From: Acaryochloridaceae cyanobacterium VAR_48_metabat_390
GTDB lineage: Bacteria; Cyanobacteriota; Cyanobacteriia; Thermosynechococcales; Thermosynechococcaceae
Length of the DNA: 40,134 nucleotides
Direction: 5' to 3'
NCBI GenBank assembly: GCA_031422435.1
Contig: JANPLU010000085.1
Location: 1 to 40,134, forward strand
The translations under genes and the position numbers were made by a program. The notes under the pieces were generated by a model. The model saw only the letters and a list, made by a program, of their open reading frames with translations, had not been told where the DNA came from and ran no database searches. This document shows, one piece after another, positions 1 to 39,722 of the stretch (position 1 is the first letter of the stretch; each line of letters opens with the position of its first letter).

Positions 1-247
1 TCATACGCTTCACTCCAAGTACAGTGCCTCAAGTCTCCCGTTTTTAATGTCTTAAATGCTTGAGTATAAATACTTATCGCAAAAGTGAGATGCTCCCACC
101 TGTGAGAATGACGATCAGAGACGAAAGTATCTTAGAGATAAAGAGTTTTGGTCAGCACTCTCTGATCGCGCCCGTTATTTTTATGATGCTGATTTTTCAT
201 ACACTGACAGAAAGTGGAAAGCAATAGAGGCCGATATCACCCGTCAT

Positions 248-739
248 TTGCGCCTCTACGATCTAATTTGCTTAGGCTGGGTTGACATAAACCAATATGC
301 AGAACAACTAAGCATTAAGCTTCCTGAAAATCCTGAATTATTTCTTAGAGAAATTGTTAGGTATGAGGCAATATTTAAGTTTGTGCAATGTAAAGCACTT
401 TACGCTGAACATTCTCCCAGAAGGCTTTGGGAATCAGGAAACAAACATAAAAAGCTATTAATGGCAGTTGAAGAAAAAGGGATAACGAATAAATTAGAGA
501 CTGAAAGTCGAAAAATAAAAGCAATGCTTCACTTTCACGAAATTATCGCCCCATTTATGGGTGCGTGGCATTATTTCATTATAGAAGCTTGTCAGAATTC
601 ACATAAATTGAAGCCTTTCATTAAATTGTACAAAGTAGCTTATCAGGAACTAGAAAGACTATTTCAGCAAGACATTCATCCAAGGGAAAAAAAGAAAGGC
701 TACAAAATCGTTAAAGGGAAAAGGGAACCACTAACGTAG
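248..739 (+). CDS. Hypothetical protein; frame is open from 89 and may be a longer gene (ATG 56) interrupted by TGA at 86-88
   Basis: ORF track plus manual translation upstream; same position (before the xis-like gene) as 38453..39061 in element B. Confidence 0.55.
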   Translation: MRLYDLICLGWVDINQYAEQLSIKLPENPELFLREIVRYEAIFKFVQCKALYAEHSPRRLWESGNKHKKLLMAVEEKGITNKLETESRKIKAMLHFHEIIAPFMGAWHYFIIEACQNSHKLKPFIKLYKVAYQELERLFQQDIHPREKKKGYKIVKGKREPLT

Positions 740-839
740 TTCTTAACCTTTCTTCATGATCGCGATCCGCTCCAGTTTTGAGGCGGTTTTGAGTGTTTTA
801 GTGAAAAGGACAACTGAATTACCCCTAAACCACTCAGCT

Positions 840-917
840 CACTCCCAGACCTACCAACCAAAAACGAGAGTGCCGCAACGAATCTCACCCCGTGCGGCAC
901 TCCCAGACCTACCAACC
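840..917 (+). repeat. 20-bp perfect direct repeat CACTCCCAGACCTACCAACC (840-859, 898-917)
   Basis: Read directly; lies just upstream of the RBS of the xis-like gene. Confidence 0.9.
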
Positions 918-944
918 CATCAAACGACAGGAGGTTTTCCTATT

Positions 945-1229
945 GTGACCGTTTTTACTCGCGTTTCAACTAACCAGCTTTGCCAGCGCACTGGGATGAG
1001 CAAGTCTTATTTTTTCGCAGCCCTTAAAACTGGTTTTTTTACCGAGGGCGTAGACACCGTTCTACTCCCAGGCAATAGCCGCCTGTGGGTTCTAGAGCTA
1101 GTTCAAGACCGTTTGGCAAACCCAACAGACAAGACGGCACGACAAAGGGCGATCGCTCGTTACTTAGAGTCGCTGCCCTCAAATTGGCCGCAACCCAAAG
1201 CCTCACAGCGCCGCGCTGTAGCTGCATAA
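945..1229 (+). CDS. Excisionase-like/AlpA-equivalent HTH DNA-binding protein (94 aa)
   Basis: GTG at 945 preceded by AGGAGG; HTH-like STNQLCQRTGMSKSYF; C-terminal RQRAIARYLESLPSN resembles small proteins of cyanobacterial islands; occupies the alpA position of element B. Confidence 0.65.
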   Translation: MTVFTRVSTNQLCQRTGMSKSYFFAALKTGFFTEGVDTVLLPGNSRLWVLELVQDRLANPTDKTARQRAIARYLESLPSNWPQPKASQRRAVAA

Positions 1230-1232
1230 CAA

Positions 1233-1262
1233 AAAGCCGATCCGGACAAGTGGATCGGCTTT
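1233..1262. terminator. Stem-loop AAAGCCGATCC-N8-GGATCGGCTTT, candidate terminator/attenuator
   Basis: 11-bp perfect inverted repeat directly after the stop at 1229. Confidence 0.6.
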
Positions 1263-1296
1263 GAAGATTAATAACTTTTCAACAGGTAAATACATT

Positions 1297-1509
1297 ATGA
1301 CAGCATCAAAGCCCAATCAACAGGGGGATTTTCAGGCAGATTTTGATCGGCTAATCCAGAATTTTGAGGCGATCGCCAAAATCCAAAGCGCAACCCGCCG
1401 CCGCTTTATTTTGAATCGGATTGCTTCTTATTACGACATTTCAAAGGCTGAATGCCGCGCTCTTTATAAATCTTGGGTGACTGAGCAGATTGTTGGAGGT
1501 GCGGCGTGA
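1297..1509 (+). CDS. Small conserved protein preceding the primase (70 aa); paralog of 39504..39722
   Basis: ATG at 1297; aligns with 39504..39722 (F-x-RLI-xx-F-xx-IA-x-I...E-x-R-x-L-xxx-WV...GGAA); GTGA overlap with the primase. Confidence 0.75.
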   Translation: MTASKPNQQGDFQADFDRLIQNFEAIAKIQSATRRRFILNRIASYYDISKAECRALYKSWVTEQIVGGAA

Positions 1510-4115
1510 TAGATCTCGCTCTAAAGCACCTCGGACTACTGGGATACAAAGACGGTGATCGCGTCTATCTCCGACCAATCACCCCTAGCGGCAAAGCCCA
1601 AAACGTTACAGTCACATATCCGACCCTACGGACCCTACCCAAGAAACGGAATGTTTATTTTGTGGTTAACGGAGGGGGGAATTCAGATGCAGACGTTACT
1701 GAATGTTGTGCCATTTTCTACGAGCATGACAATTTAGACAAATCATTTCAGCGTGACCTCTGGCAGTCTTTAGGGCTACCAGAGCCTACATTTCAAGTTG
1801 ACACAGGCGGCAAATCAGTCCATAGCTATTGGGTGTTTGACCAGCCGATAGGCGTTGATGAATGGCGATCGCTTCAGTCAGATTTCTTAGAGTTTGCCAA
1901 TGCAGATCGCTCAATCAAGAATCCGTCGCGGGTGATGCGTCTCGCTGGCAGTATTCACCAGGGGACAGGCCAACAGGCCACGATCATCACTCAGTCAGGA
2001 CAGCGCTACTCCTACCAAGAACTGAGGGCAGTTATCCCAGAACAGACTAAACCAGAGCGCAAACAACGCCCACAGCAGTCCGTAACGGTGGGTCTAATGC
2101 CCTTGACGGTTGTGTTAGATCCCAAAAACAGGATGCGGATTGAGTCAGGCAGTGCTGAGGGTTCCCGTAACGCTTCAGGGGCTGCGCTAGTTCGTGACTT
2201 GATCGGATGTGAAGTCTGGTCACGGGCTTCTGGTATCCAGTACGAGGGCAGTGCAGAGAGATTGTTTCAAGACTACTGCGATCACTGTAACCCTCCCTTG
2301 CCAGATCGAGAACGAGACACAATTTGGCGCTCTGCTATGGGCGATAGTCCTACGCCTACCCTATCAGTGGATAAAATTCTGGGCTGCATACAGGCATGGG
2401 AACGGCGCGAAAGTCGCCCACAGGGTGCCCCACGATTAGACAACCCTGAAATAGAATCCTCTGATTCAGGGGTTGAGGCTCTAATATCTCACGGCAGCAC
2501 TAAACCCCCTCAGTTATTTGCAGACGGTCTAACCGATCCGGTTAGCAAGTTAAGCAACAGTTTAGGGCTGTCTATCGAGCCTTTTATTGTGTGCTTACTG
2601 CCTATTCTTGGCTCAAGGATCAAGGCAGGGACACGGTTAGCGATAGATTTTGTGACCGATTACTATGCACCTCCCATCATTTGGGCGGGGCTAGTGGGTG
2701 ACTCAGGTACTCTAAAAACTCCAATTCTCAAAGCATTGACTAGCCCTTTAGACGATCTGCAAAAAGAAGCCTTTGAGGACTATCAACGGCTCTACTCAGA
2801 ATATGAAATGGAGCTACAGCGATGGGAATCGTTCAAAAAGGATGAGAGAGCAGACAATCCTAAGCCAAAGCCCCCAGCTCTGAAAGATCTGTACTTCTCA
2901 GACTTCACCATTGAGGCGATTGCTGATTCAATGCGCTACTACCCAGACGAGGGGTACTTAGTCCACATTGATGAGCTGGCAGCATTTCTTAAGTCAATGG
3001 ATGCCTACCGCAATGGGAAAGGAAGCGATCGCCAAAGGTGGCTTACCTCACATAGTGGCAGTGCCCTAAAAGTCAACCGTAAATCCTCAGAACCTATCTA
3101 CCTTTATCGAACCTCAATCAGCCTTGTAGGCGGCATTCAGCCTTCAGTTTTAGAAAAGCAGGTGCTAGACGATCCAACTTCAGAAGATGGATTATGGGCG
3201 CGGTTTATTTGGGTTCGTCTGTCCATGACCACACCCCCCGGTATCTCAGACAGACCCCGATTCGATTTATCTCAACTGCTGAAGGGAATCTATCACAGCC
3301 TAAATCAGGTAGAGGCCAAAACCTACGGACTATCTAATGAAGCTAAAAAGCTTTGGAACGAATGGAATGCCGAGATAGGGCAACTCATCAAACAAGAGCC
3401 TTCAGGCATCCTGAGATCGACCTATCCAAAGCTCAAGGAAGCAGCGGCGCGTATTGCTCTAATTGCCCACATCACCAACGCAAAGGTGTCTAGCATCCCT
3501 ATTGAAGACACCATCTCAGGCGACACCCTCAACAGTGCGATTGAATTTACGCGCTGGCTGATGGGTCAGACTCGGATGCTGTATTGCGAGATTGGCACCT
3601 CAGACAATCCTAAGGCATCCAGAATCGTCAAATTTGTAAACCGATTTAGAGGGTGTGGGTGGATCAAAGCTCGAACGGTTCGGGATTGGTGGGCAGGAAA
3701 GGATAAGCCCAATGCAAAGAAGTGCCGCGAATGGATGGCTGAAATTGTGGGGCTTGGATATGCAGCAGACAACGGGCTAAAAATTGAGGATTCAAATTAC
3801 CAGATAGAAATCGTAGTCCATCTAGTCCATGACCAGCCCAAAACTCATATACAGCAAGGGACACAGGTAGGGACTACCGTTAGTCCATGCGTAGTCCATC
3901 TAGTCCATGACCAGTCCCCACCCCACACCGATGAGCAGAAAAAAGACTCAGGATGGACTAGATGGACTAACGATGGACTAAGGGTAGTCCATGACTCAAT
4001 CCCATGCACAGTAAGCAATTCAGAAGATGATGGACTAGATGGACTAGGATTTGTAGATCCAAAAGTTGATGAATGGGTAGATATAGACCCTGACGAGTTG
4101 GGAGGTGCAGCATGA
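1506..4115 (+). CDS. RepB-type (AEP) DNA primase-PriCT-DUF3987 (YfjI-like) helicase fusion
   Basis: AEP motifs EHD, DTGGKSVHSYW, NPSRVMRLAG; PriCT-like GSRN...CNPPLPDRE; P-loop GDSGTLKT, Walker B IDELA, ISLVGGIQP, DGLWARF. Confidence 0.85.
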   Translation: MIDLALKHLGLLGYKDGDRVYLRPITPSGKAQNVTVTYPTLRTLPKKRNVYFVVNGGGNSDADVTECCAIFYEHDNLDKSFQRDLWQSLGLPEPTFQVDTGGKSVHSYWVFDQPIGVDEWRSLQSDFLEFANADRSIKNPSRVMRLAGSIHQGTGQQATIITQSGQRYSYQELRAVIPEQTKPERKQRPQQSVTVGLMPLTVVLDPKNRMRIESGSAEGSRNASGAALVRDLIGCEVWSRASGIQYEGSAERLFQDYCDHCNPPLPDRERDTIWRSAMGDSPTPTLSVDKILGCIQAWERRESRPQGAPRLDNPEIESSDSGVEALISHGSTKPPQLFADGLTDPVSKLSNSLGLSIEPFIVCLLPILGSRIKAGTRLAIDFVTDYYAPPIIWAGLVGDSGTLKTPILKALTSPLDDLQKEAFEDYQRLYSEYEMELQRWESFKKDERADNPKPKPPALKDLYFSDFTIEAIADSMRYYPDEGYLVHIDELAAFLKSMDAYRNGKGSDRQRWLTSHSGSALKVNRKSSEPIYLYRTSISLVGGIQPSVLEKQVLDDPTSEDGLWARFIWVRLSMTTPPGISDRPRFDLSQLLKGIYHSLNQVEAKTYGLSNEAKKLWNEWNAEIGQLIKQEPSGILRSTYPKLKEAAARIALIAHITNAKVSSIPIEDTISGDTLNSAIEFTRWLMGQTRMLYCEIGTSDNPKASRIVKFVNRFRGCGWIKARTVRDWWAGKDKPNAKKCREWMAEIVGLGYAADNGLKIEDSNYQIEIVVHLVHDQPKTHIQQGTQVGTTVSPCVVHLVHDQSPPHTDEQKKDSGWTRWTNDGLRVVHDSIPCTVSNSEDDGLDGLGFVDPKVDEWVDIDPDELGGAA
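3812..4046. repeat. Iteron cluster, probable replication origin: 11 copies of TAGTCCAT
   Basis: Forward at 3814, 3823, 3881, 3892, 3901, 3985; reverse at 3953, 3962, 3973, 4030, 4039; includes a 25-bp direct repeat 3812-3836/3890-3914. Confidence 0.85.
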
Positions 4116-4492
4116 ACGCTCTCCCTTCTATCGGCGGATGGGTGTGGGGCTGCTCTGGAAACGTCTGCCAGGTGCAGAAGGTACAGCAGCATCCCACTAC
4201 TAAAGCCGTTCGATTGGTTGTCATGTGTCCACAAGGTAAGACCGTCATTCCCTTAGATGCAGTTGTGGGCACAGCACCGGACACAACCGAGCATCCAGCG
4301 ATAGGCGATCGCGTTTGGGTTGCTCCTGTAGATGCAGTGGGGACTGTTGCGCAGCTTGACCATGAAGACCGGATGGCGCGGGTGAATGACATCGAGGGCT
4401 ATACCCATCCAGTGACGGGCTATGAGGTGATCTCGCAATGGTTCCCCTATGCCTGCCTAGAAACGATTGAGGAAGGGAGGGCTACGGAATGA
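4112..4492 (+). CDS. Hypothetical protein (two short SH3/KOW-like beta segments)
   Basis: ATGA-coupled to the primase with GGAGG SD; IGDRVWV-type motif. Confidence 0.65.
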   Translation: MNALPSIGGWVWGCSGNVCQVQKVQQHPTTKAVRLVVMCPQGKTVIPLDAVVGTAPDTTEHPAIGDRVWVAPVDAVGTVAQLDHEDRMARVNDIEGYTHPVTGYEVISQWFPYACLETIEEGRATE

Positions 4493-4656
4493 GTGAGACA
4501 CACGACCCACAGATAGAGGGTGATCGCCTCTATCGGGAATGCTTGGACCTGCTGAATCGAATTAAATGCAAACGTCTAAATGTGAAGCTCCTAAAGGCTT
4601 CTAAACACTTTCTTGAATTGACGCTCAACTATAAAACAAAGGATTCTAGACCATGA
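4489..4656 (+). CDS. Hypothetical 55-aa protein (not in ORF track)
   Basis: MSETHDPQIEGDRLYRECLDLLNRIK...; ATGA overlap with previous stop, GGAGG upstream. Confidence 0.6.
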   Translation: MSETHDPQIEGDRLYRECLDLLNRIKCKRLNVKLLKASKHFLELTLNYKTKDSRP

Positions 4657-4723
4657 TTGGCAAAGGTTTCGGATATCAAGCACCACACGTAGGGAAAGGC
4701 GAAGCAGCACGACTAGAGCGTAT

Positions 4724-5593
4724 TTGTGTGCCGTCTTGAGTGGCGAAACAGATGCCCCAGAACGGTTTATTGCCTGGTCTGATCGCATTACTCAAAGACT
4801 TGGCGGCGAAAGGGCTTGGGAGCAGTGGTTCATTCATCATGCCAATGACGATCTAGGGTATGCGATCGCCTCAAAGTTCCATGCAGCCATTCACAAAATA
4901 TTACCCCCTAGCATTCGGCAGGAGATGAGCAGCAAGGCTAGAGAATGCCTGACCTCAATCTTTCGAGATGACGGGCTAACCTTGGGCAAAGATTTCTCAA
5001 TGGCTCCTGATGGTGGGTTCATTCTGGGAGAAAAGGCTATCGAAAAACTTAAGGCCGATATGCCACCTCAAGCATGGGCAGATTGGGAGAGCCAAGGCTT
5101 GATCAAGTCAGTCACTTCATGCCCTTGGGAAGCAGTAGAGAAGCGGCTAGATGTTTTATTCCGTCAAAACTTACTGCATCGACTGTCTCAACTGGTGAAG
5201 CAAGGCCGCGCGGCTGCTGTGATTGCTGGATGGATATTAACGCTTTCATGTGGCGTGACCAATCAGGTCATGGGAAGCGATGAGGATTTGACCCTGTTCA
5301 ATTTGATGTTGAGGCATCTTCACGAGAATCACGAAGCCACGGCTAAAGAGGTCTGGGCTGCCATTCAATCAGGCAACTGTGCAAATGGGGATGAACTTCT
5401 AGCCATGGACATTAATTGTTTGTGTGATGTGGCGATCGCCGCAGGTAGCTCTGAAGAGAACGGAGAAATTAAAGGCGATCACATCAATAGAAAATGTATG
5501 GAACGATTAGCCCTTGTATGGCGTGGCGATAAGTTCAGCATGACTGAGGTGATTGGGCTGCTAGACAAGCACAGCAGAGGGAAAGCAGCATGA
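4724..5593 (+). CDS. Hypothetical protein; true start may be ATG 4653 with a 1-nt frameshift
   Basis: Long ORF in operon; coupled ATG at 4653 (MIGKGFG) is out of frame. Confidence 0.65.
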   Translation: MCAVLSGETDAPERFIAWSDRITQRLGGERAWEQWFIHHANDDLGYAIASKFHAAIHKILPPSIRQEMSSKARECLTSIFRDDGLTLGKDFSMAPDGGFILGEKAIEKLKADMPPQAWADWESQGLIKSVTSCPWEAVEKRLDVLFRQNLLHRLSQLVKQGRAAAVIAGWILTLSCGVTNQVMGSDEDLTLFNLMLRHLHENHEATAKEVWAAIQSGNCANGDELLAMDINCLCDVAIAAGSSEENGEIKGDHINRKCMERLALVWRGDKFSMTEVIGLLDKHSRGKAA

Positions 5594-5609
5594 CTGAGGT
5601 GATTGGGCT
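5536..5609 (+). repeat. 24-bp perfect direct repeat CAGCATGACTGAGGTGATTGGGCT (5536-5559, 5586-5609)
   Basis: Read directly. Confidence 0.9.
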
Positions 5610-5766
5610 ACAGGTTGAGCGCATCTCTCGAATCACAAAGTATCTACCGCGCGATGAACTTGAGAAGTTTCTATTGACGTTGGCTCAAAACTTTTTAGAG
5701 CGAGAAACCGTTTATGCTCAGTGGGTTAAATCGCTTAAATCCCAGGTAAACGAGACGTCTGACTGA
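5590..5766 (+). CDS. Hypothetical 58-aa protein (not in ORF track)
   Basis: MTEVIGLQVERISRITKYLPRDELEKFLL...; ATGA overlap with previous stop. Confidence 0.55.
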   Translation: MTEVIGLQVERISRITKYLPRDELEKFLLTLAQNFLERETVYAQWVKSLKSQVNETSD

Positions 5767-5819
5767 AGCCAAAATGCTAAACTTTAAACAACAATCAAAC
5801 CGATTTAAGAGGATAAAAA

Positions 5820-6323
5820 ATGAACCAGGTAGCAGCGAGACTAGATGCTTTAGAAGCCGTCAGTGCTGAAATAAGTAATAAGATTTCAGCATTGAAGCGC
5901 AAAGATGAAGAGCAGACAAAAAGGATAGATTCGATACTGGCTCAACCGCTGCCAAAGGTAGCAATTTCTACTCAATCAAAACCCGCAGATTCCGCAACAC
6001 CATCGACACAAAGCAGTCTTTCTCTTAAAGAACAAATTGCCCAGACTGAACGCTACCTGCACAATCTCCACAGCAGCAACCCATATACAAACGCGGGCAA
6101 AATCCAAACAGCGAACCGCGAACTAAAAGACCTTAGAGCACAGGAAGCGCAACGGGAAGAGAGCGAAACAGAACAGTTGGCTAAAGCGCGTACTGTGGAG
6201 AATGCGATTCTGGCAGCAAAGCTAAAAGCTGATGCTGAATACCGCAACTCTCCTGAGGGCAGGAAGCAGGCGCTTGAGGATGCGCATAAAAGGTATCAAG
6301 CTCAACATGGAATCTTTGTTTAA
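5820..6323 (+). CDS. Hypothetical coiled-coil protein
   Basis: AGAGGA RBS; heptad-rich helical sequence. Confidence 0.7.
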   Translation: MNQVAARLDALEAVSAEISNKISALKRKDEEQTKRIDSILAQPLPKVAISTQSKPADSATPSTQSSLSLKEQIAQTERYLHNLHSSNPYTNAGKIQTANRELKDLRAQEAQREESETEQLAKARTVENAILAAKLKADAEYRNSPEGRKQALEDAHKRYQAQHGIFV

Positions 6324-6335
6324 GGGAAAAAAATC

Positions 6336-6686
6336 ATGCGCTTTACCATCCGAAATTCAGACAGTTCTGTCTATAGCTTTGAGTCCACGCCCGAGGGAAT
6401 CCGAGAGCAGAAAGGACAGATCCTACAGCAGCTACAGACCCTTGTAGATAGCCAGTGGAAGAGCAAAACCCAACGCGATTACGACGTTAATTTATCAGCC
6501 GATCCACGGGTTAAAAAGTTTAACTCTGACTTAAACTTTTATGCTCAGTGCGATCAACAAATTGAAGTTGAGCAAAGGCTTTCTCAGACGGCTGAAGCTG
6601 AGAAAAGGGTAAGAGATGAGCAGTTCAGAAAAACTTACGGGTTCTACCCTGATCAGTATCAGGTCGATGAGCAAAGTTTTTATTAA
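6336..6686 (+). CDS. Hypothetical protein
   Basis: ORF in operon with AAGGGA RBS. Confidence 0.65.
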   Translation: MRFTIRNSDSSVYSFESTPEGIREQKGQILQQLQTLVDSQWKSKTQRDYDVNLSADPRVKKFNSDLNFYAQCDQQIEVEQRLSQTAEAEKRVRDEQFRKTYGFYPDQYQVDEQSFY

Positions 6687-6781
6687 ACCTGAATGACCAA
6701 AATAACCGTTGATAACGCCATAGAGAAGCATTGACGGACTAGCAAAGCACCTAATTTCACATAGTTGAGAATCTAAGAGCG

Positions 6782-7054
6782 ATGTTTACAACTACCACAC
6801 CTAAAAAGTACAGCCCTAGCGATTCGCGTCTCGTTGAAAGGTTCTGCGAAATCTTTGAGATTGACGATTGGCGACAGCTCCCAAAAGGGCAGATCGGAGA
6901 AATGGTATTTGTGAAAATGCCTCAGTTTTGGAAAGCGCGGGCTGAATGGCTGCACACGGAAGATCCTACCGAGCTGCTTAAGGACACGACGATGGCAGGT
7001 GCCCACAGCCTTTCAGGCACTCCGGCTTATCAGAGACTGAATGGTAATGAGTAA
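6782..7054 (+). CDS. Hypothetical protein
   Basis: ORF co-oriented, directly upstream of the TerS cluster. Confidence 0.55.
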   Translation: MFTTTTPKKYSPSDSRLVERFCEIFEIDDWRQLPKGQIGEMVFVKMPQFWKARAEWLHTEDPTELLKDTTMAGAHSLSGTPAYQRLNGNE

Positions 7055-7115
7055 GCAAAAACGCGGAGAAAAGTAAAGAAAACGCAGGATAAAGTAAGGT
7101 CTATACGTCTTAAAA

Positions 7116-7616
7116 ATGAACCCACGACAGCAGCGATTCTGCCAAGAATACCTAGTCGATCTGAACGCCTCCAGGGCAGCGACACACGCGGGGTACAGCA
7201 GCAAAACCGCGTCATCTCAAGGTGAACGCCTGTTGAGGAATGTTGAGGTGAGGGCTGAGATTAAGCGGCTTCAGCAGCAGCGCTCAGAACAGCTGGAAAT
7301 TACCGCTGATGATGTGTTGACCGACCTCGCGGCGATCGCCTTTACTCCCATCACTGAGGTGTTGACCATAGCTGATGGAAAGGTGACGCTGTTGGATAGT
7401 TCGCAGTGGTCAGACGAGGCTAGTAAGGCTGTAGAGTCCGTTCGACAGTCGAAGGATGGGTTTAGCGTCAAGATGCACTCGAAGCTGGCAGCACTTGAAA
7501 AACTCATGCAGCACTTGGGTATGCTGTCAGATCTGAACGTGGCGATCGCAACCCTCTTAACCTATGGCGACGTGCAGAAGACGGATGAAGGCTATCGAGT
7601 GATACTCAATGAGTAA
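7116..7616 (+). CDS. terS: Terminase small subunit (Terminase_2, SPP1 gp1/SaPI-type)
   Basis: Canonical RQQRFCQEYLVDLNASRAATHAGYSSKTASSQGERLL...ITADDVLTDLAAIAF...KLAALEKLMQHLGM. Confidence 0.92.
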   Translation: MNPRQQRFCQEYLVDLNASRAATHAGYSSKTASSQGERLLRNVEVRAEIKRLQQQRSEQLEITADDVLTDLAAIAFTPITEVLTIADGKVTLLDSSQWSDEASKAVESVRQSKDGFSVKMHSKLAALEKLMQHLGMLSDLNVAIATLLTYGDVQKTDEGYRVILNE

Positions 7617-8169
7617 GACATGGACTAAAGAGGAATGCCGCCTGCGGTACGTCCAAGGGGAACGCATTGGACTAAAAGCCCTTGCGGTAGAGTCAGGGGT
7701 GTCGTTTGGTTCCCTGAAGCGTTGGTCTTCTGAAAAGCCTGAAACATGGCCTCAGCAGCGAAAACAGTTTGAGACCAAAGTAAGACTTTTCACCCACCAA
7801 AAAAGCATAGAAACTGTCTCAACTGCGATCGCCCACAGCAATGAAGCCGTCATCGCAGAACACCTTGAGATGCTGGCAATGCTTCGGGAAATTGCCTCAT
7901 TTTTCTTCAAAGCTGTGTTGTTCAGAGTTAAAGAAATTGAGAATGACTCAGATCCTGACTCTGTAAATGACAAGCTGCTGGAGTTCCTAAAAACCTTGGG
8001 TGGGCGTGTCCCATTACAAACCTACTCAAACGTTTTGCACATTGCTATTCAAGGGGAAAGGCAGGCGCTTCATTTAGATTTAGTTGACCCTGCCATCCTA
8101 GAGAGAGCAGCCAATAGGCACGGGTTGAGCCTTGTAAACCTTGAAGTAGTGGAGAATCCCAATGCCTAA
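7609..8169 (+). CDS. HTH protein, terminase small subunit-like (second family)
   Basis: N-terminal YVQGERIGLKALAVESGVSFGSLKRWS...WPQQRKQF; C-terminal AIQGERQALHLD like the 'LIxLERQAxGLD' end of phage TerS proteins; overlaps terS by 8 nt. Confidence 0.6.
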   Translation: MSKTWTKEECRLRYVQGERIGLKALAVESGVSFGSLKRWSSEKPETWPQQRKQFETKVRLFTHQKSIETVSTAIAHSNEAVIAEHLEMLAMLREIASFFFKAVLFRVKEIENDSDPDSVNDKLLEFLKTLGGRVPLQTYSNVLHIAIQGERQALHLDLVDPAILERAANRHGLSLVNLEVVENPNA

Positions 8170-8710
8170 CTCAATGCCCTTTGATCGCTCCATTAAGCGC
8201 CGCAAATCTACGCAATATCGGATGGAGATAACACCTGAACAGTGGCGAAATTTCATGGATGGCATTACGAATGGGCTATCAATCGAGACATCCTCATGGA
8301 GTGCTGGCGTCCCTCCTAGAACCGTTCGTAATTGGCTAGAAAAGGGCGAGATTTTAGCAGATGAAGATCTGCCCGTTGGATCTGCTGCAGCCCAGTATCA
8401 GGCCTTTTGGCGAGGCCATGAAAAGGCAAGGGCTAAATTTGAAGCGCTTCATGCTGGCAACATCAATTCTAAAGCAACCACAAAGTCTTCAGGCGAATGG
8501 ACAGCAAGCGCCTGGATGCTGGAGAGGCGGCGTTCCAAAGACTATGGGCAGCATTACCAGGTTGAGAAGCAGGTGGGTACACAGTTGTTAGAGCTTGTTA
8601 AATTCTGTTTTGACCAATCGCCTACACCTTTGTTCAGAGAACAGCTTGCGGCGATTGTGAACATGATTCCAGCTCTGGAATTATCGGAGACAGAAAAGTA
8701 TGAAGCTTGA
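8162..8710 (+). CDS. HTH protein, terminase small subunit-like (third family)
   Basis: HTH GLSIETSSWSAGVPPRTVRNWLEKG, then FWRGHEKARAKFE and WTASAWMLERRRSKDYG ('WxAAAWxLERR' TerS-type motif). Confidence 0.7.
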   Translation: MPNSMPFDRSIKRRKSTQYRMEITPEQWRNFMDGITNGLSIETSSWSAGVPPRTVRNWLEKGEILADEDLPVGSAAAQYQAFWRGHEKARAKFEALHAGNINSKATTKSSGEWTASAWMLERRRSKDYGQHYQVEKQVGTQLLELVKFCFDQSPTPLFREQLAAIVNMIPALELSETEKYEA

Positions 8711-8903
8711 TATTGACCTCCAAACGTGGTCAGAGCTTATGACGGCAATCAGCAGCCGACAGACCCCATACGATGAATTGACAGAAGTTGACCAAGTCAC
8801 AGACCGATTAGCCCTTGAGAAATTTGAGGAGCTATATCAACTGTTTGACCCTGCGATGAAAGCTCAATGTATGGGCATGATCAATAAGAAACTAGGGCGC
8901 TGA
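8700..8903 (+). CDS. Hypothetical 67-aa protein
   Basis: Overlaps previous stop; in operon. Confidence 0.6.
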   Translation: MKLDIDLQTWSELMTAISSRQTPYDELTEVDQVTDRLALEKFEELYQLFDPAMKAQCMGMINKKLGR

Positions 8904-8908
8904 AAGCT

Positions 8909-9130
8909 ATGAAGAAACGCAGCGGAAAACCCAGAACCTACGAACTGAATCAAGACCTTATCCATAAAATCGACAGCGCTTCAAGTGAGCTGGATATCTA
9001 CCCGAGTGAGTTGGTTAACGTACTTCTAGCTGATGCCTTGCAGCGCTTTGAGTCAGGCGCTCTGAAGCTTTCCACAGAGAGACGGTCAAATCACCAATTT
9101 CGCTCTCACAGGCTTAAGAGTATTGGCTAG
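8909..9130 (+). CDS. Ribbon-helix-helix (CopG-like) DNA-binding protein
   Basis: RTYELNQDLIHKIDSASSELDIYPSELVNVLLADAL strand-helix-helix pattern. Confidence 0.6.
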   Translation: MKKRSGKPRTYELNQDLIHKIDSASSELDIYPSELVNVLLADALQRFESGALKLSTERRSNHQFRSHRLKSIG

Positions 9131-9321
9131 TAAATGCTGAAAAATACAGACATTGAAAAATTTATTTACTGATTTTGAGGTCTTATGAAAAACCTATCGG
9201 CTTGCGAATATTTCCGCTTGTGGAACGGCGGAGGGGGTATATATATTGAATATACCCTTGTAAGGATATATCACTCAGTTCACAAAACCTTCTAAGCGAT
9301 TGCTCTTTTAGGACAACCCCA

Positions 9322-9744
9322 ATGGCAACACATAGAGATAAGTTACAGGCAGAATGGAATGCTCTTACACCAGAGCAACGACTAGAGGAAGCAAAAACGA
9401 TAGATCATAGTCATTTTGTTATGAGTCTTAGGTCAATAATGACACCAGAAGAAATTGAAGTTTATAAGACGGCAAAAAAAGCGCGACAAGAAGAAGAATA
9501 TGGAAAACAAGCCCTCTATATTTGGGGCTTTGCTGGCATGATCTTGCTCATCATGGGTAATACTATTTTTGGCAAGCAGATTTCATCGGTATTTTTGCCC
9601 TCAGACTGTGACAATGCAGCAACCAACCGATTGAGAATGGATAAACACATTGACGGCTTACAAAGCAGCGGGAAGACGGTTTACGACAGCACGTACTCGG
9701 TTCGTGATGCACTAAAAAATACTGAAAGAAGCTCTTGTAATTAG
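9322..9744 (+). CDS. Hypothetical single-pass membrane protein
   Basis: AGGA RBS; hydrophobic ALYIWGFAGMILLIMGNTIF. Confidence 0.65.
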   Translation: MATHRDKLQAEWNALTPEQRLEEAKTIDHSHFVMSLRSIMTPEEIEVYKTAKKARQEEEYGKQALYIWGFAGMILLIMGNTIFGKQISSVFLPSDCDNAATNRLRMDKHIDGLQSSGKTVYDSTYSVRDALKNTERSSCN

Positions 9745-10187
9745 ACTGTTTTTTCTTGACGGTTAAGCTTATACTCGCGTAGCGTCTGCAATCGCCATGC
9801 AGGGTATGTCCGCTCTTTGAGCCATAAAGTAGACAAAGGCTTTTTACACAGGTTGTTTGACGTGTCCCCATTGATGACTCCGCAGCTTCCCTCCAGAAGG
9901 AACGTGACAAAATCTCAGTATTTCTCAGTAGTCTAGCCGCCATGTAATACGTGGCTTATCTATATCCTTTGAGCAAATCCTGGATTCCGGCAAAGCTTCT
10001 ATGCTTAAGGGTTTCAGCCATATTGCCGGAGGTGGCACAAAGGGTACGGCTGGAAACTATACCCTTCCGCGACATCCCGCGAATGTTTTATAGGCTGGGA
10101 GTTATGGGTCTATGGAGGGGTTTCAAACCTCCTCATCCTCACAGCAGGGCAAAAGGCAGTCTTAGCGCTTGAAGTGGAAGCTCTCTG

Positions 10188-10571
10188 TTATTTCCAATCT
10201 CTCATTGCCACGCCGTACTCAGATGACCTTGTTTTTACAGCGCTTGACTGTGGGAGTTTTTTCTCTGGAAGTCCCGTAGGCACATAAGGAGACTTTCGTT
10301 TTTGATGAGTTAAGTTTAATTCTAAATCCGAGAAAGAGCTTTTTTGCGCTAGACGCTCTGGAATGATGACCCTCTGCATCAGGTATTCAATCGTCTGCTC
10401 TTTGACCCACCCTCGGTTCACTAAAATTTTACCAAAGGACATATTGCAGATGTTCTTCTGCTCGGCAAGCGCCATGTTCACCTGTGCTTCGGACAGTATG
10501 CCTGCCTCTACAAGATACGCACCGATGGGCTTATGGCTAGAACTAACATTAGGGCTTGAGTGATTGGCCAT
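10188..10571 (-). CDS. Stand-alone MshEN/T2SSE-N-like domain protein
   Basis: Tandem motifs PIGAYLVEAGILSEAQVNMALAEQ and FGKILVNRGWV resembling RLGxxLVxxGLIxxxxLxxxLxxQ. Confidence 0.7.
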   Translation of the reverse strand: MANHSSPNVSSSHKPIGAYLVEAGILSEAQVNMALAEQKNICNMSFGKILVNRGWVKEQTIEYLMQRVIIPERLAQKSSFSDLELNLTHQKRKSPYVPTGLPEKKLPQSSAVKTRSSEYGVAMRDWK

Positions 10572-10921
10572 GACGGCAAAAGAGATAGGGAACTAAAGCT
10601 TATAAACAACCGAACCATCAAAAACAGAGTATCAACTAAAGGCGGGACAGATTACCCTTTAGCTTTTGTCTGGCAGAGTTAAGGTTAAGATTCTATTATG
10701 GCAAACTGCTCTAGGAAGTAGCTCAGAAAACCCACGTAAATTACGTTCTCTTCTTCAAAGCTAAGTTAGACCGTCCTTTTTGCCTACGTCAGCCACAGAA
10801 GCCAATGACTGGGCGATTTCTATGTGGGCATTACTTTTCAGGATTGACCCTAAAAAGCCCCCAAGATTTTTACTCTCAGGGGCGTTGCTGGTTTATGGGG
10901 TGGCTAGAAACCTCCCTACCG

Positions 10922-11261
10922 TAGATCGCAATTACGAAAGGTACAGCGTGGCCTGAACCGTTCAGGCTTTAGTACAAGGGAATCTCAGCCCCTTCATTGA
11001 GAGCGCCTTTAATCAAAAAATTGAGGCTATAAGTCAGGTCAACAATATCCACCTTTTCCACATGGCGCGCGTTGTATTCAAGGCGAGATTGCAGCCCCAA
11101 AAGCGTCTCATGGACAACCTCTAACGTCATTTTTGCCTGCTTAGCAAATTTTTGGAGGTCTTCAGGCGACATCTCAATCGTGCTTTCATTTGGAAACATA
11201 GTTTTTACCTTTAGGTGAATGCATTCTAGACCGCAATTACGATAGAAACAGCGTGGCCTGA
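10922..11261. repeat. 35-bp imperfect direct repeat (10922-10956, 11227-11261; 31/35 identical)
   Basis: TAGATCGCAATTACGAAAGGTACAGCGTGGCCTGA vs TAGACCGCAATTACGATAGAAACAGCGTGGCCTGA. Confidence 0.85.
10969..11199 (-). CDS. Hypothetical 76-aa protein
   Basis: ATG at 11199 preceded by AAAGGTAAAAACT; this start avoids the overlap in the track's 11316 start. Confidence 0.6.
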   Translation of the reverse strand: MFPNESTIEMSPEDLQKFAKQAKMTLEVVHETLLGLQSRLEYNARHVEKVDIVDLTYSLNFLIKGALNEGAEIPLY

Positions 11262-11536
11262 TGGGCTTTGATGCGGCGTAACAGCTCAGGGCATCTCGCG
11301 TCAGATTCGTACTCAAACAGTTGTCTAAGAGACTCAGTTAGTGCGGCGTGGCGCTCTCCATTCAAGGCTGGGACACCCATACGCAAGATCGCCTCTTCTA
11401 AGGCTTTAATGGCGCTTATTTGGAGGCAGGCAAACGAGTCTTCAACCACACCATCGCTCATAAGCGCATACTGAACCGTCTTGAGGGCGTTTATGGCTTC
11501 TAAAAGCTGCTGCTGCGGAAGTGCGTCGTAAATCAT
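11237..11536 (-). CDS. Hypothetical protein
   Basis: AAGGACAAAACT-ATG RBS. Confidence 0.65.
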   Translation of the reverse strand: MIYDALPQQQLLEAINALKTVQYALMSDGVVEDSFACLQISAIKALEEAILRMGVPALNGERHAALTESLRQLFEYESDARCPELLRRIKAHQATLFLS

Positions 11537-11630
11537 AGTTTTGTCCTTTGGTAAGTGTTTTTGAAGATCCCGATTTCAAATCTGAAGCTTAGGCAGTAGA
11601 TGGCACTGCCCAAGCCATGTCATACACGGT

Positions 11631-11777
11631 CTAGTCGATGGGAAACCCTTTGTACAGGGTTGGAGCCTTACGCGGCGCAGGCATGGCCTGATTAAAGCGG
11701 CGCTCTACCTCATCAACCTTTGAGGGCTGGTTTACTGAGACAGTGACGGTCTTGGTTTCTACAGTGGTCGGTGACAT
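11631..11777 (-). CDS. Hypothetical 48-aa protein
   Basis: AAGGAG RBS before ATG 11777 (MSPTTVETKTVTV...). Confidence 0.55.
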   Translation of the reverse strand: MSPTTVETKTVTVSVNQPSKVDEVERRFNQAMPAPRKAPTLYKGFPID

Positions 11778-11860
11778 ACTATTTGAACTCCTTAGTTTGG
11801 GGTAGAGAGAGCGCTTGTTCTTTGCCGGATGGGGCGCTCTCTTTTGTTTAACTGAATTTA

Positions 11861-11956
11861 TTATCACTGTATATCGTGTTAATTGCAATTATTTAGTTAT
11901 ACTATTTTCGCTGTATACCGTGTTTTTGTATAAGCATAGGTTATCGCTGTATACTT
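11861..11956. promoter_or_regulatory. Three direct repeats TTWTCRCTGTATAY in a divergent promoter region; candidate operators
   Basis: Copies at 11861, 11905 (17/20 identical to the first) and 11941, in an AT-rich intergenic region. Confidence 0.55.
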
Positions 11957-12003
11957 CTGGAAATCACGAGTATACTGATTCTGTAGAGTTTGATATATGA
12001 GCT

Positions 12004-12228
12004 ATGCCCAGGGGGAACCCTAATCCAGTCCAGACTACTGAGTTCAAGGTCTATCGTTACAAGCGGACTGATGGAACTGATGAACCTCTGGCTCCCAAGC
12101 AGGTTCAAGTACGATTACCACTGAGCGTTGATACTGTAGTTCAGACTCTGCCCAACCGTTCGGCATGGCTACGCCGCGTCATCACTGAGGCTGCACAGCG
12201 TGAACTGATGAAGGATGGTGAGACATGA
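12004..12228 (+). CDS. Small RHH-like DNA-binding protein
   Basis: VQVRLPLSVDTVVQTLPNRSAWLRRVITEA pattern. Confidence 0.7.
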   Translation: MPRGNPNPVQTTEFKVYRYKRTDGTDEPLAPKQVQVRLPLSVDTVVQTLPNRSAWLRRVITEAAQRELMKDGET

Positions 12229-12506
12229 CACAGGCCACTGATACCGACATCCGAGAACTTCGGGATCTAATGCTTGGCTTAGATAAAAAGCTAGATGGCA
12301 TGGATAAACGGCTAGAGGTCTTTCAAGCTAGAACCGATGAACGATTTAACAGCATCGATCAGCGATTCAATAGCATTGACCAGCGGCTAGGCTCTCTTGA
12401 GGATAGAACCAAGTCTCAAGATAGTCGCTTGTGGACGTTTGTAACTGCTCTCGTGCTCGCAGCCTTGGGCATCATCACCAAGCTGGCATTCTTTCCACAG
12501 GCTTAA
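12225..12506 (+). CDS. Coiled-coil protein with C-terminal membrane anchor
   Basis: RFNSIDQ x2 heptads; LWTFVTALVLAALGIITKLAFF; ATGA coupling. Confidence 0.75.
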   Translation: MTQATDTDIRELRDLMLGLDKKLDGMDKRLEVFQARTDERFNSIDQRFNSIDQRLGSLEDRTKSQDSRLWTFVTALVLAALGIITKLAFFPQA

Positions 12507-12801
12507 CCCTGCTCCCATGCAGTTTATTGATGCGTAGATTGATATCCATATTATTGAGAATGGCTAGAAATACCTTACAGCAAAGCTTTCAGGATTCGAC
12601 TCTCACCCTTGGTAAAGGTGAGGTCATGAGGAATAGAGGCTTCTATTGTCGATGAGGATAATATTTTCCAGCTTCAATAGGGGCAAAAGGCAATTCTTTA
12701 GTACACGTCTCCAACAAATCTCGATTGCAGGTTCCTTCAAGCGCCCTTGGGGCAAAGAGACTCTTTTATCTTAACGCAGAAACTCAACTGACGCGTTCGG
12801 C

Positions 12802-12960
12802 TCACTTACATGATTTGAGGAAATAGATCTGTGATTTTGTGGCGATCGCCTTTCCGGTTAGGGTAGCAGGTACCCCACAGCTAATCGTGTACCGTTTGCC
12901 CAAATACAGCCATCGGAGCCTGTATCGTCCATCGTGGTTCTCAATTGTGACTGCTGACAG
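12802..12960 (-). pseudogene. Truncated tyrosine integrase, N-terminal arm-binding domain only (DUF3596/Arm-DNA-bind-like)
   Basis: Manual translation LSAVTIENHDGRYRLRWLYLGKRYTISCGVPATLTGKAIATKSQIYFLKSCK*; reads away from the tRNA 3' end; no catalytic domain follows. Confidence 0.7.
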
Positions 12961-12962
12961 GG

Positions 12963-12981
12963 CGGGGTAAATTTCGGGGTA
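12963..12981. promoter_or_regulatory. Paired CGGGGTA repeats 12 bp apart; candidate integrase arm-type sites
   Basis: 12963-12969 and 12975-12981, between the integrase remnant and the tRNA. Confidence 0.45.
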
Positions 12982-13102
12982 GGTTTAACGCCCCAAACAA
13001 CCCTTAACGGCCTAGCCTCATTGTCTTATTGATAATTGAAAAGACCTTCAGGAGTTGTTTAGAACTCCCAAAAGCCTTGCTGCATACGGTTCCCCGAATA
13101 AA

Positions 13103-13176
13103 TCGGAGCGACAGGATTTGAACCTGCGACCCCTACTACCCCAAAGTAGTGCGCTACCAAGCTGCGCTACGCCCCG
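13103..13176 (-). tRNA. tRNA-Pro(GGG)
   Basis: CGGGGCGTAGCGCAGCTTGGTAGCGCACTACTTTGGGGTAGTAGGGGTCGCAGGTTCAAATCCTGTCGCTCCGA folds as a cloverleaf; anticodon GGG; no encoded CCA. Confidence 0.97.
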
Positions 13177-13242
13177 ATGTAATGCTTTACAAGACTATCA
13201 CAAAATCTTTTACTGTTTTCAGAAAATTCTGAGTTTCTTGTT

Positions 13243-37215: not shown

Positions 37216-37272
37216 AGGGGCATAGGGGCATGATTTAAGGGCATGACAACTTTGTTAAAAAAACGATGCCCC
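37216..37272. promoter_or_regulatory. GGGCAT repeats; candidate arm-type integrase binding sites
   Basis: AGGGGCAT at 37216 and 37224, AAGGGCAT at 37237, inverted ATGCCCC at 37266. Confidence 0.55.
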
Positions 37273-38453
37273 AATTAACTGATACCCAGATAAGGCAAGC
37301 GAAAGGAAACGGCAAAGCACAACGGCTTTACGATACCCGTGGCCTCTATTTAGAGGTCAGTCCACCAGGGGGCAAGCTGTGGCGCTTCAAATACAGGTTT
37401 GGAGGGAAGGAAAAGCGGATCGGGGTTGGAAAATATCCTGACGTGTCGCTATCCCAGGCTAGAGATCGCCGCGATGAAGCTCGTAAGCTCTTAGCAGACG
37501 GCATCGACCCTAGTGTTCAGCGTCAGGCTCAAAAGGTAGCGGCTGAATTAACTTCTTCAAGCGGCTTTAATGTTGTATCGAAGGAATGGTTCAATAAATT
37601 CTCTAAAAATTGGTCTGCAGGTCACACCAAGGTTGTGGAGCGCCAACTAGAGAGGGATGTCTTACCGTGGTTGGGTGATCGCGTTATTGGGGAAATTACC
37701 GCAACTGAATTATTGGGGGTTATCCGCAAGATTGAGGATAGGGGTTCAATCAACACAGCCCATAGGGTGTTGAGCTTCTGTGGTCAGATCTTCAGGTATG
37801 CCGTGGTAACTGGACGAGCTGAGCGCGACCCATCGGCAGACTTGAAAGGGGCATTACCACCAGCTACAAAAAAACATTTTGCGGCCATTACTGACCCTAA
37901 GAAGGTAGGGGCGTTGCTAAGAATGTTAGATGCATACGAGGGCACCTTCGTGGTGCGGTGTGCCCTTCGCTTGACCCCGCTTGTATTTGTCCGTGCTAGT
38001 GAATTACGCCATGCTCGATGGTCAGAGATTGACCTTAAGAATTCCGAATGGCGTTATCTGGTCATCAAGACAAAGCTTGAACATGTTGTGCCATTGAGCC
38101 GTCAGGCCGTAGCCATCCTTAAGGAATTGCAGCCACTGACAGCCCATCGAGAATGGGTGTTTCCTAGTGGCTCTACTCCTATCAGGCCAATGAGTCAGAA
38201 TGCCGTACTTGCTGCACTTAGGGCACTGGGTATCGACAAAGAAGAAATGTCAGGCCACGGCTTTAGGGCAATGGCGAGAACGATTTTAGATGAGGTTCTG
38301 GGAGTGCGACCGGAACTAATAGAACAGCAGCTTGCCCATGTGGTTAAAGACCCATTAGGCAGGGCATACAACCGGACAAAGCATCTTGAGGAACGCCACA
38401 AGATGATGCAGTCGTGGGCTGATTATTTGGATAAATTAAAGGAAGGAAAATAA
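37266..38453 (+). CDS. P4-family tyrosine integrase, apparently intact
   Basis: Arm domain GLYLEVSPPGGKLWRFKYRFGGKEK...GKYPDVSLSQAR; catalytic FVRASE, HGFR, LAH, AYN. Confidence 0.95.
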   Translation: MPQLTDTQIRQAKGNGKAQRLYDTRGLYLEVSPPGGKLWRFKYRFGGKEKRIGVGKYPDVSLSQARDRRDEARKLLADGIDPSVQRQAQKVAAELTSSSGFNVVSKEWFNKFSKNWSAGHTKVVERQLERDVLPWLGDRVIGEITATELLGVIRKIEDRGSINTAHRVLSFCGQIFRYAVVTGRAERDPSADLKGALPPATKKHFAAITDPKKVGALLRMLDAYEGTFVVRCALRLTPLVFVRASELRHARWSEIDLKNSEWRYLVIKTKLEHVVPLSRQAVAILKELQPLTAHREWVFPSGSTPIRPMSQNAVLAALRALGIDKEEMSGHGFRAMARTILDEVLGVRPELIEQQLAHVVKDPLGRAYNRTKHLEERHKMMQSWADYLDKLKEGK

Positions 38454-39061
38454 TGTCTATTAATTGGGAGCTGTATGATCTGCTTGAAAGGTTTTGGTTA
38501 GTTGAAGCCGCTTGTTTATGGCTGGAAATTGAGCCGACAACACAAATAAAAGAAAATCCTCCACATGAAGTGATAAGGATAATGTCTTTTATGGAAGAAA
38601 AGCTATATGTTTATCGAGCTGGATGGGCTGCTCCATCAAAGCTCATAAAAACAGATGGTCATCCCCTACCTGTAGAGACTTGTCGCGTTCGTCATGGCAT
38701 AAATTATTCTCTAGAAGAAGCACGGAATCAAATTCCACTTGTCTTCAAATCTGATTTATTAAAACTGGCTCAAGAACTTGGGAAAAAGCCTAAGTTTCTG
38801 TTCCAAGAAGCTAGAGAGCAAGACGACGAAGGATGGAAGAAGGGAAAAATTGGTAAGCGGAGCTATCAAAAATTAATTAAAGTTCTGTGCCACTTCGAGG
38901 GCAAAATCGACCTTGAAGACATAAATGTTGTTTCCAAAATCAAGGCACTAGCAGAAAGAACTGGTAATAATATCTCAGATCCAATTATCCGAGGCATCTT
39001 GGATGAAGTAGACCCTTCAAGGCTGAATAGGTCTAACCGAAGAACTGGAAAAACGAAATAA
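38453..39061 (+). CDS. Hypothetical protein coupled to the integrase
   Basis: TAATG overlap with integrase stop; AT-rich. Confidence 0.7.
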   Translation: MSINWELYDLLERFWLVEAACLWLEIEPTTQIKENPPHEVIRIMSFMEEKLYVYRAGWAAPSKLIKTDGHPLPVETCRVRHGINYSLEEARNQIPLVFKSDLLKLAQELGKKPKFLFQEAREQDDEGWKKGKIGKRSYQKLIKVLCHFEGKIDLEDINVVSKIKALAERTGNNISDPIIRGILDEVDPSRLNRSNRRTGKTK

Positions 39062-39238
39062 GTGATTTTCGTTTCTATTGAATGCTGGCTTTAAGGAATC
39101 TCTAAAGCCTAGATACCTCATGCTTTTCAGCGATCTCAAAAAACGAAAAATTGCATTTTTCGATAAACCTTTAAAATTTTCGCCCGTTTCTTAAATAAAT
39201 CAGAGAGTATGTTTTTGTAGATTTTTGGAGGTTTAGAG

Positions 39239-39433
39239 ATGCCTGAAACTGGATTTTTAAGAATTTCAGACGTGCTGAGATTTATCCCCGTTAGCAAGTC
39301 GAGTTGGTGGGCTGGCGTAGCCGCAGGAAAATATCCTAAATCGATCAAGCTTGGCTCAAAAACGACTGTTTGGCGCGTAGAGGATATTCGGGCGCTGATT
39401 GAAAACGGCGTTTCTGAAAGGGGCGCGGCGTGA
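39239..39433 (+). CDS. alpA: AlpA family regulator/excisionase
   Basis: PETGFLRISDVLRFIPVSKSSWWAGVAAGKYPKSIKLGSKTTVWRVEDIRALI; GGAGG RBS. Confidence 0.92.
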   Translation: MPETGFLRISDVLRFIPVSKSSWWAGVAAGKYPKSIKLGSKTTVWRVEDIRALIENGVSERGAA

Positions 39434-39503
39434 TTAAGACTCAAAAAAATACCCAGTCGGTTCAGGACTGGGCAAAAAACGAAAAATCTCATAAGGACAT
39501 TTT

Positions 39504-39722
39504 ATGCGACTCAAAACCTTTTCACCACAAGCGATTTCGGTTCCTAGCCCTGAGTTTCAGCGCCTTATCGCTACTTTTCAAAGGATTGCGGCGATTGGCG
39601 ACCCGATAGAGCGAGATTTTGAACTAGGGCGCTCTGCCCGTGATCACGGCACCCCGCGCAGTGAGTTTCGCCGTTTGTTCTGGCAATGGGTTGAAACGCA
39701 AGTTTTAGGAGGTGCGGCGTGA
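39504..39722 (+). CDS. Small conserved protein preceding the primase; paralog of 1297..1509
   Basis: Alignable protein, same position, same GGAGGTGCGGCGTGA junction. Confidence 0.75.
   Translation: MRLKTFSPQAISVPSPEFQRLIATFQRIAAIGDPIERDFELGRSARDHGTPRSEFRRLFWQWVETQVLGGAA

Follow-up and report, generated by a model that had tools for sequence, protein, structure and literature searches.

A satellite-like element at the left of the window, by which we mean the whole stretch of 40,134 nucleotides that was analysed, carries three tandem genes, T1, T2 and T3, and the evidence supports the view that all three encode TerS-type (small terminase) proteins of an element that lacks terL, the gene for the large terminase. 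The explanation that we favour, with a little better than even confidence, is that they could act as three alternative adaptors, each replacing a helper phage's TerS and recruiting the TerL of that helper, thereby widening the range of usable helpers. The helix-turn-helix (HTH) at the N-terminus of each TerS is predicted to bind the element's own DNA, each C-terminal tail would recruit a different helper phage's large terminase, the helper would supply TerL, portal, capsid and tail, as for the TerS of SaPIs, and the terS cassette would constitute a swappable slot; TerL binding, pac recognition, induction and packaging of the element are all steps that we infer. A satellite usually has one TerS and depends on helpers with a TerL that accepts it; a cassette of three adaptors would offer an uncomplicated means of broadening helper range at the packaging step. 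More tentatively, and just short of an even bet, we propose a satellite family with an interchangeable adaptor array, read through a docking code between the TerS C-tail and the TerL N-terminal peptide that would move between unrelated terminases. If this is true, a single element could use phages whose motors are of the gpA-like, phrog_38 and phrog_979/2 kinds, and the range of helpers could be predicted from sequence.

The cassette consists of the following genes:

7116-7616, + strand: T1, ORF of 166 aa, Terminase_2-family small terminase
7609-8169, + strand: T2, ORF of 186 aa, TerS-type, of a cyanophage family without a name
8162-8710, + strand: T3, ORF of 182 aa, PHROG 4102 / Sf6-like small terminase

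A sequence-only reading of this DNA had described three overlapping genes that do not align with one another, and both observations hold: the T1/T2 and T2/T3 ORFs overlap by 8 nt each (ATGAGTAA and ATGCCTAA), BLASTP among the three proteins gave zero cross-matches at E<=1, and their pairwise profile-profile probabilities are 4.7%, 3.9% and 0.6%. All three genes are intact and follow the run of genes behind the primase. The HTH N-termini which that reading saw in T2 and T3 are present in AlphaFold models, and the C-terminal motifs that it named, IQGERQALHLD in T2 and WTASAWMLERR in T3, were located in the translations. The sole similarities among the cassette proteins are the HTH of T2 and T3 and a short tail motif in T1 and T2; with an HMM built solely from T1 tails, 4 of 147 T2-family proteins and 0 of 1,470 shuffles scored 10 bits or more, which weakly supports a tail common to T1 and T2. 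A contig from a public run, possibly of the source sample itself, covers 7064-8937 with zero differences. A sigma-70 promoter scan of 5500-9400 returned no match.

The cassette is embedded in an island with the following features:

1..98: end of a multicopy IS, 100% match to copies on contigs C61, C110, C114 and C90
756..1229, + strand: ORF, putatively excisionase-like by position; its C-terminal 90 aa resemble the small integrase-primase spacer gene of sister elements (35% to L013:9621; 46% over 41 aa to L167:1361)
1506..4115, + strand: primase-helicase replication protein (DUF3987; PF13148, E 1e-50; phrog_36873, phrog_2373)
3805..4055: direct and inverted iteron-like repeats at the primase 3' end (families D3, D5, D17, I1, I2, I14 and I15), a likely origin
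4112..7054, + strand: small uncharacterised genes with homologues in sister elements
8700..9130, + strand: two small genes, 81% and 99% identical to those of the C107 sister element of the same genome
10969..12506: small genes that recur at other element ends of the genome, with tblastn matches on C50, C107, C112, C125, C81 and C35
12840..12960, - strand: 5' remnant (~40 codons) of a tyrosine integrase, 87% identical in DNA to the start of the C25 integrase, probably from another, decayed element
13102..13177, - strand: tRNA-Pro(GGG), found with ARAGORN, the right boundary of the island

The primase-replicase and candidate origin are thus followed by terS, which is the order of primase, origin and terS described for PICIs in the available text of PMC6092414 and of the SatelliteFinder study (10.1101/2022.09.14.508007). 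The genes within 4112..7054 have no useful Pfam, PHROG or NCBIfam match, and an Atlas search with one of them, ORF 4724, returned nothing; another, at 6782-7054, has counterparts before the T3 homologue of G008 and a short way upstream of that of G006. An exact 24-nt direct repeat (5536-5559 and 5586-5609) makes the start of ORF 5590 repeat codons near the end of ORF 4724, and the product of a gene at 10188-10571 on the - strand is small and carries a c-di-GMP-binding motif of MshEN type (NF053729, E 6e-13).

The absence of a large terminase, part of the original claim, is confirmed by profile and tblastn searches of the host genome, whose assembly is rated 99.99% complete. PF03237 and phrog_38 have 0 matches each in it; phrog_979 has one weak match (E 2.6e-4), on another contig, to an unrelated gene that by its sequence we take to be PhoH; and 16 TerL queries together with 8 portal, capsid, scaffold and protease queries gave no tblastn match. 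No structural or lysis gene was found in the 13 kb of the element on this contig and no terL, portal or capsid gene genome-wide, so that the head module by which a degraded prophage might have been recognised is not there. Judged by its gene content, the element is a PICI-like satellite without packaging motor or capsid gene. The contig starts inside the IS, and the left end of the island and its integrase are not on the contig; four contigs with the other IS end have no integrase nearby, target-site duplications pair the IS end with no other contig, and no repeat of the tRNA end of at least 13 nt occurs on the contig. Since the left end is cut by an IS and neither integrase nor att repeat is found on the contig, this copy of the element may be immobile. 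No repressor or AlpA/MerR regulator was recognised in 1-13,000; the sister element of G023 has an AlpA-like gene.

The identification of T1 as a Terminase_2 TerS proved correct (PF03592, E 1.4e-38, over the cut-off; phrog_51, E 2.7e-37), and T1 homologues adjoin terL in the phage loci L078, L080, L136, L137, L138, L139, L141 and L144. The assignment of the second and third genes to two other TerS families stood for T3, which matches phrog_4102 (E 6.3e-15) and phrog_1482, both annotated as TerS; T2 has no family match. T3 matches Sf6_terminase only below the cut-off, its AlphaFold model has a pLDDT of 74, and a tblastn search of GenBank phages found one weak match only. Its homologues adjoin terL in L009 and L107: the closest phage copy seen (45%, in L009, a stretch of G007:C237) stands head-to-head with a terL-portal-scaffold-capsid module, and in L107 a distant member of PHROG 4102 sits immediately upstream of terL. 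The phrog_4102 matches in 401 class genomes are mostly short and N-terminal (HTH region), many of them identical copies repeated, and were left out of the TerS counts. As a separate observation, TerS ORFs in L142, L144 and L145 (from G488, G498 and G052) each hold two tandem Terminase_2 matches; two of these ORFs precede gpA-like TerLs and one has no terL nearby.

T2 has no Pfam match and no PHROG match at E<=0.01, phrog_1206 being weakly matched by 5 of the 24 members of its alignment, and in the Atlas it falls in viral clusters without names. Its AlphaFold model (pLDDT 95) comprises an HTH, a long helical hairpin and a tail; the best named TerS match in BFVD is weak (E 0.024), and the comparison with G20c TerS 4xvn (Z 5.7, rmsd 18.7, 107 aligned) stands amid unrelated helical rows. 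T2 and T3 both have an N-terminal HTH, a helical oligomerisation core and a C-terminal tail in 15-21 kDa, the TerS architecture used for comparison being that given in the available text of PMC9611059. In phages, T2 homologues adjoin terL in L010, L023, L024/L026/L027 and L044, with relatives at most two genes from terL in about four independent loci. Among 24 T2 metagenome loci, terL lies within two genes in 5 (L023, L024, L026, L027 and L044, of which L024, L026 and L027 are close kin) and 6-8 kb off in 2; none was seen in 17, of which 7 are shorter than 2.7 kb and 10 longer, and no T1- or T3-type TerS was found in any of the 24. The copy in L010, a prophage of G007, is 43% identical to T2 and stands head-to-head with a 665-aa gpA-like TerL (weak Pfam match, E 0.003), which is followed by a Mu-type portal. 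The tail of T2 is 68% identical to that of phage L023, the stalk 28%. From gene position and architecture T2 is likely a TerS, which would put a name to a previously unannotated cyanophage TerS family of 189 cluster representatives at E<=0.001.

The possibility that the second and third genes are merely generic HTH regulators, raised at the outset, is thus countered by terL-adjoining phage homologues of both. The expectation that their closest phage homologues lie directly upstream of terL was upheld as to adjacency but not as to orientation, the copies in L010, L023 and L009 being head-to-head with terL. Among other searches, tblastn of T2 and P0053 against GenBank phages gave no match, a viral_contigs scan gave one partial and probably chance match to query A1 and none to a G023 T2 copy, and a broad T2 alignment run against 401 phylum genomes found, beyond the window, weak HTH-type matches only. 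The T2 copies of G023 and G027 separate from the window's T2 group in the tree, which suggests separate captures.

The partners of these proteins in phages furnish an argument for adaptors. In G007, a genome of the same genus (a bin of 82% completeness, to which phage contigs could have been wrongly assigned), every one of the three TerS types is represented among the prophages, and the TerL family next to it differs from type to type: in addition to the gpA-like pair of L010, a Terminase_2 TerS lies directly upstream of a phrog_38 TerL in L078 and L080, and the T3 homologue of L009 lies beside a phrog_979/phrog_2 TerL. Terminase_2 heads pair with phrog_38, phrog_2 and gpA-like TerLs. For T2 heads the partners are phrog_979, phrog_38 and gpA-like TerLs. 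Head families therefore mix freely with TerL families, and family alone does not fix the partner. What follows the partner in sequence comparisons is instead the C-tail of TerS, a short stretch, together with the N-terminal peptide of TerL. For 16 partly related phage TerS/TerL pairs, with regions set by hand after the sequences were viewed, the last 60 residues of TerS covary with the first 30 of TerL (r 0.44 and p 0.0003 in a Mantel test, with a partial r of 0.36 when the TerS head is controlled for and an r of 0.49 when two near-twins are left out), as against r 0.14 (p 0.09) for the tail and the rest of TerL and r 0.31 for the TerS head and the TerL N-terminus. L010 and L023 have different TerL families with a common TerL N-terminal motif and a common T2-type tail; in L141 the phrog_675 TerL, behind a Terminase_2 gene, is related to that of L010 (39% identity), but the N-terminus and the TerS tail both differ. 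The L010 motif occurs in a third TerL too, on G007:C276, a contig that does not extend to its terS.

The tails of the cassette best match three different phage groups, T1 those of L136/L080/L078 (prophages with phrog_38 TerLs), T2 those of L023/L010 and T3 that of L009, which fits what is known of the TerS C-terminus, namely that it binds TerL; according to the available text of PMC4669245, this holds for lambda, P22 and T4, where the N-terminal HTH reads DNA. What sets TerS-TerL specificity in systems other than these three could be readily tested with the cassette. Together with the G007 pairings and the covariation of tail and TerL N-terminus, these matches argue for the adaptor model. Counted against it are the following: 1) the closest phage copies of T2 and T3 do not occupy the usual position upstream of terL. 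2) T2 is assigned from position and weak fold matches. 3) Multi-TerS arrays are rare, and single-TerS sister elements do well without extras. 4) The head also correlates with the TerL N-terminus, and the pairs are few and partly related. 5) An IS cuts this copy of the element, and the bin of G007 is incomplete.

A second explanation, which we regard as rather unlikely though as the main rival, is that one TerS packages the element and the others mainly poison phage packaging through TerL sequestration or dead mixed rings; this would provide population-level defence against phages that the element cannot ride, and is compatible with adaptors. Satellites often target the terminase, as with Ppi, Rpp and Gpi (available text of PMC6739421 and bioRxiv 2025.02.27.640495), and sister elements carry cargo that on sequence reading is labelled restriction-modification and BREX-like. 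Rpp of the E. coli cos-PICIs is, like the cassette proteins, a TerS-related satellite protein, and acts on helper packaging; as far as described in the text available (PMC6739421), it imitates the part that binds DNA and gets to TerL only by way of the helper's TerS. In contrast, T1-T3 equal their phage homologues in length, can be aligned with phage TerS from one end to the other and retain the C-terminal tail, which speaks for adaptors; they do not have the form of an Rpp-type redirector, and mixed rings may still occur. Compared with homologues that were assigned, by the length of their contig, to a sister element on an 11,367-bp contig, conservation is 60/84/94% for T1, 73/75/91% for T2 and 71/80/86% for T3, the head being the least and the tail the most conserved part in each. 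This gradient favours adaptors; slow change in the tails and faster change in the heads would also agree with relaxed DNA binding, as interference might allow. Against interference, however, a complete HTH is kept in T1, T2 and T3, T1 homologues reuse a few discrete recognition-helix variants instead of decaying, and each type also occurs as the sole TerS found in a terL-less element (T1-type in G013, T2-type in G027, T3-type in G008/G006), where it is presumably the packaging TerS.

The recurrence of the cassette, a further argument for adaptors, bears also on a third and less probable explanation, for which we see only a slender chance: turnover at a recombination hot spot, the triple being a transient stack of which one copy is relevant at any time. 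Window positions 7266-8200 and 8416-8910 are colinear with the 11,367-bp contig, which comes from a different study, an equally long diverged stretch lying between them. Close homologues of T1, T2 and T3 show 13 exact coincidences in the size (bp) of their longest source contig (11367 for all three, one further for T1+T2, four for T1+T3 and seven for T2+T3), as against at most 3 in 20,000 null draws, which is indirect evidence that they co-occur. Four T1 homologues (P0201, P0204, P0205 and P0206) end in the window's T2-T3 junction sequence, implying that T1 comes right before T3 there. In G020 a PHROG 4102 gene and, after it, a Terminase_2 gene stand in a tRNA-Thr integrase-primase element with no terL, and G023 has two old T2 paralogues in tandem with synonymous sites saturated between them. 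Relatives thus carry T1-T2-T3, T1+T3, T2+T3, two T2 paralogues or one TerS, and the existence of double and single versions indicates that the terS slot is modular.

Such varying gene content, including the T1-T3 order implied by the four homologues, the presence in G008 of T3 without T1 and T2, and an internal stop in one G023 T2 copy, is what turnover would produce. However, the full triple persists in the diverged sister, which differs at 152 of ~935 and 47 of ~495 bases and has a different primase region. Transient stacking is further weakened by the dN/dS values, computed for T3 and the G023/G027 T2 homologues and not for T1 or the window's T2: 0.13 (dS 1.7) for T3 against its G008 homologue and 0.13-0.17 for each G023 T2 paralogue against its closest copy, which by this measure place both T3 and the G023/G027 T2 homologues under purifying selection.

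A survey of genomes and contigs for multi-TerS arrays, which for genomes the sequence-only reading had suggested, turned up triple, double and single versions, and the multi-TerS arrangement is rare. The T2 family was found in 4/61 and 4/48 genomes, T3 in 5/48, and Terminase_2 in 4/48 and in 15/401 class genomes; in those 401 a second TerS family stands next to Terminase_2 only in the window and G020, and 16 further Terminase_2 loci (7 terL-adjacent, 9 terL-less) include 0 with a second TerS family. Related elements in this host family have an integrase at a tRNA, a primase, often a RuvC-like gene, and then terS. In trees, of which that of T1 is a quick version, the window's genes fell into no supported clade made up of satellites only.

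That the element is what remains of a decayed prophage, or that generic HTH regulators have been taken for TerS, is a reading to which we give scant credence and which is largely refuted: the missing left end, the want of a family match for T2 and the 10 longer phage loci with no terL recognised in the fetched flank would suit it, but the host genome has no head genes, the layout of primase, ori, small genes and terS recurs in tRNA-linked integrase elements, T1 and T3 match TerS families, and a single prophage would leave three unrelated terS genes unexplained.

Among known systems, the element resembles the pac-type SaPIs and PICIs, as presented in the available text of PMC6092414, PMC6739421 and 10.1101/2022.09.14.508007, in having a primase-replicase and origin repeats followed by terS in a tRNA-adjacent island where terL, portal, capsid and lysis genes are not found. 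It differs from them in its three unrelated full-length TerS in place of one and its cyanobacterial host; no Ppi or capsid-remodelling gene was recognised in the element, and integrase and repressor/AlpA were not seen on its contig. It likewise resembles the PICI-like tycheposons (10.1101/2020.12.28.424599) and VEIMEs (PMC9618062), tRNA-linked, terS-bearing elements of cyanobacteria and marine bacteria; satellites with one TerS are well known, and cyanobacteria are among their hosts. The terS genes of VEIMEs have their nearest relatives in co-occurring phages (PMC9618062), as in the window's case. The available text of these two sources describes a terS or capsid gene and no multi-terS array, and the window's host is Thermosynechococcaceae-like. 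The sequence-only reading knew of no triple-TerS satellite; our search of the literature, mostly the text of open papers, likewise found no multi-TerS satellite.

Several observations concern neighbouring elements and loci. A second element begins at 37266-40134 of the window with a P4-type integrase, a 202-aa gene, a small gene and a primase 78% identical to that at 1506. Further tRNA-linked integrase-primase elements or remnants in the same genome (C25, C45, C50, C81, C107, C112 and C125) share end genes with the terS-bearing element, and that on C81 has a 941-aa tape-measure-like gene after the primase. In the G007 prophage L010 (4609-7170) the Mu-type portal is fused to an InPase (PF18823) domain, and the TerL genes of L023, L024 and L028 are apparently interrupted right after Walker A by an insertion, presumably intein-like. 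Finally, L167 (G020:C107), at 4981-6890, is an integrase-primase element with an HTH gene in the TerS slot and a complete phrog_38 terL; no portal or capsid gene occurs in 12 kb of its sequence, restriction-modification-like cargo comes next, and it is possibly a satellite with its own whole terminase.
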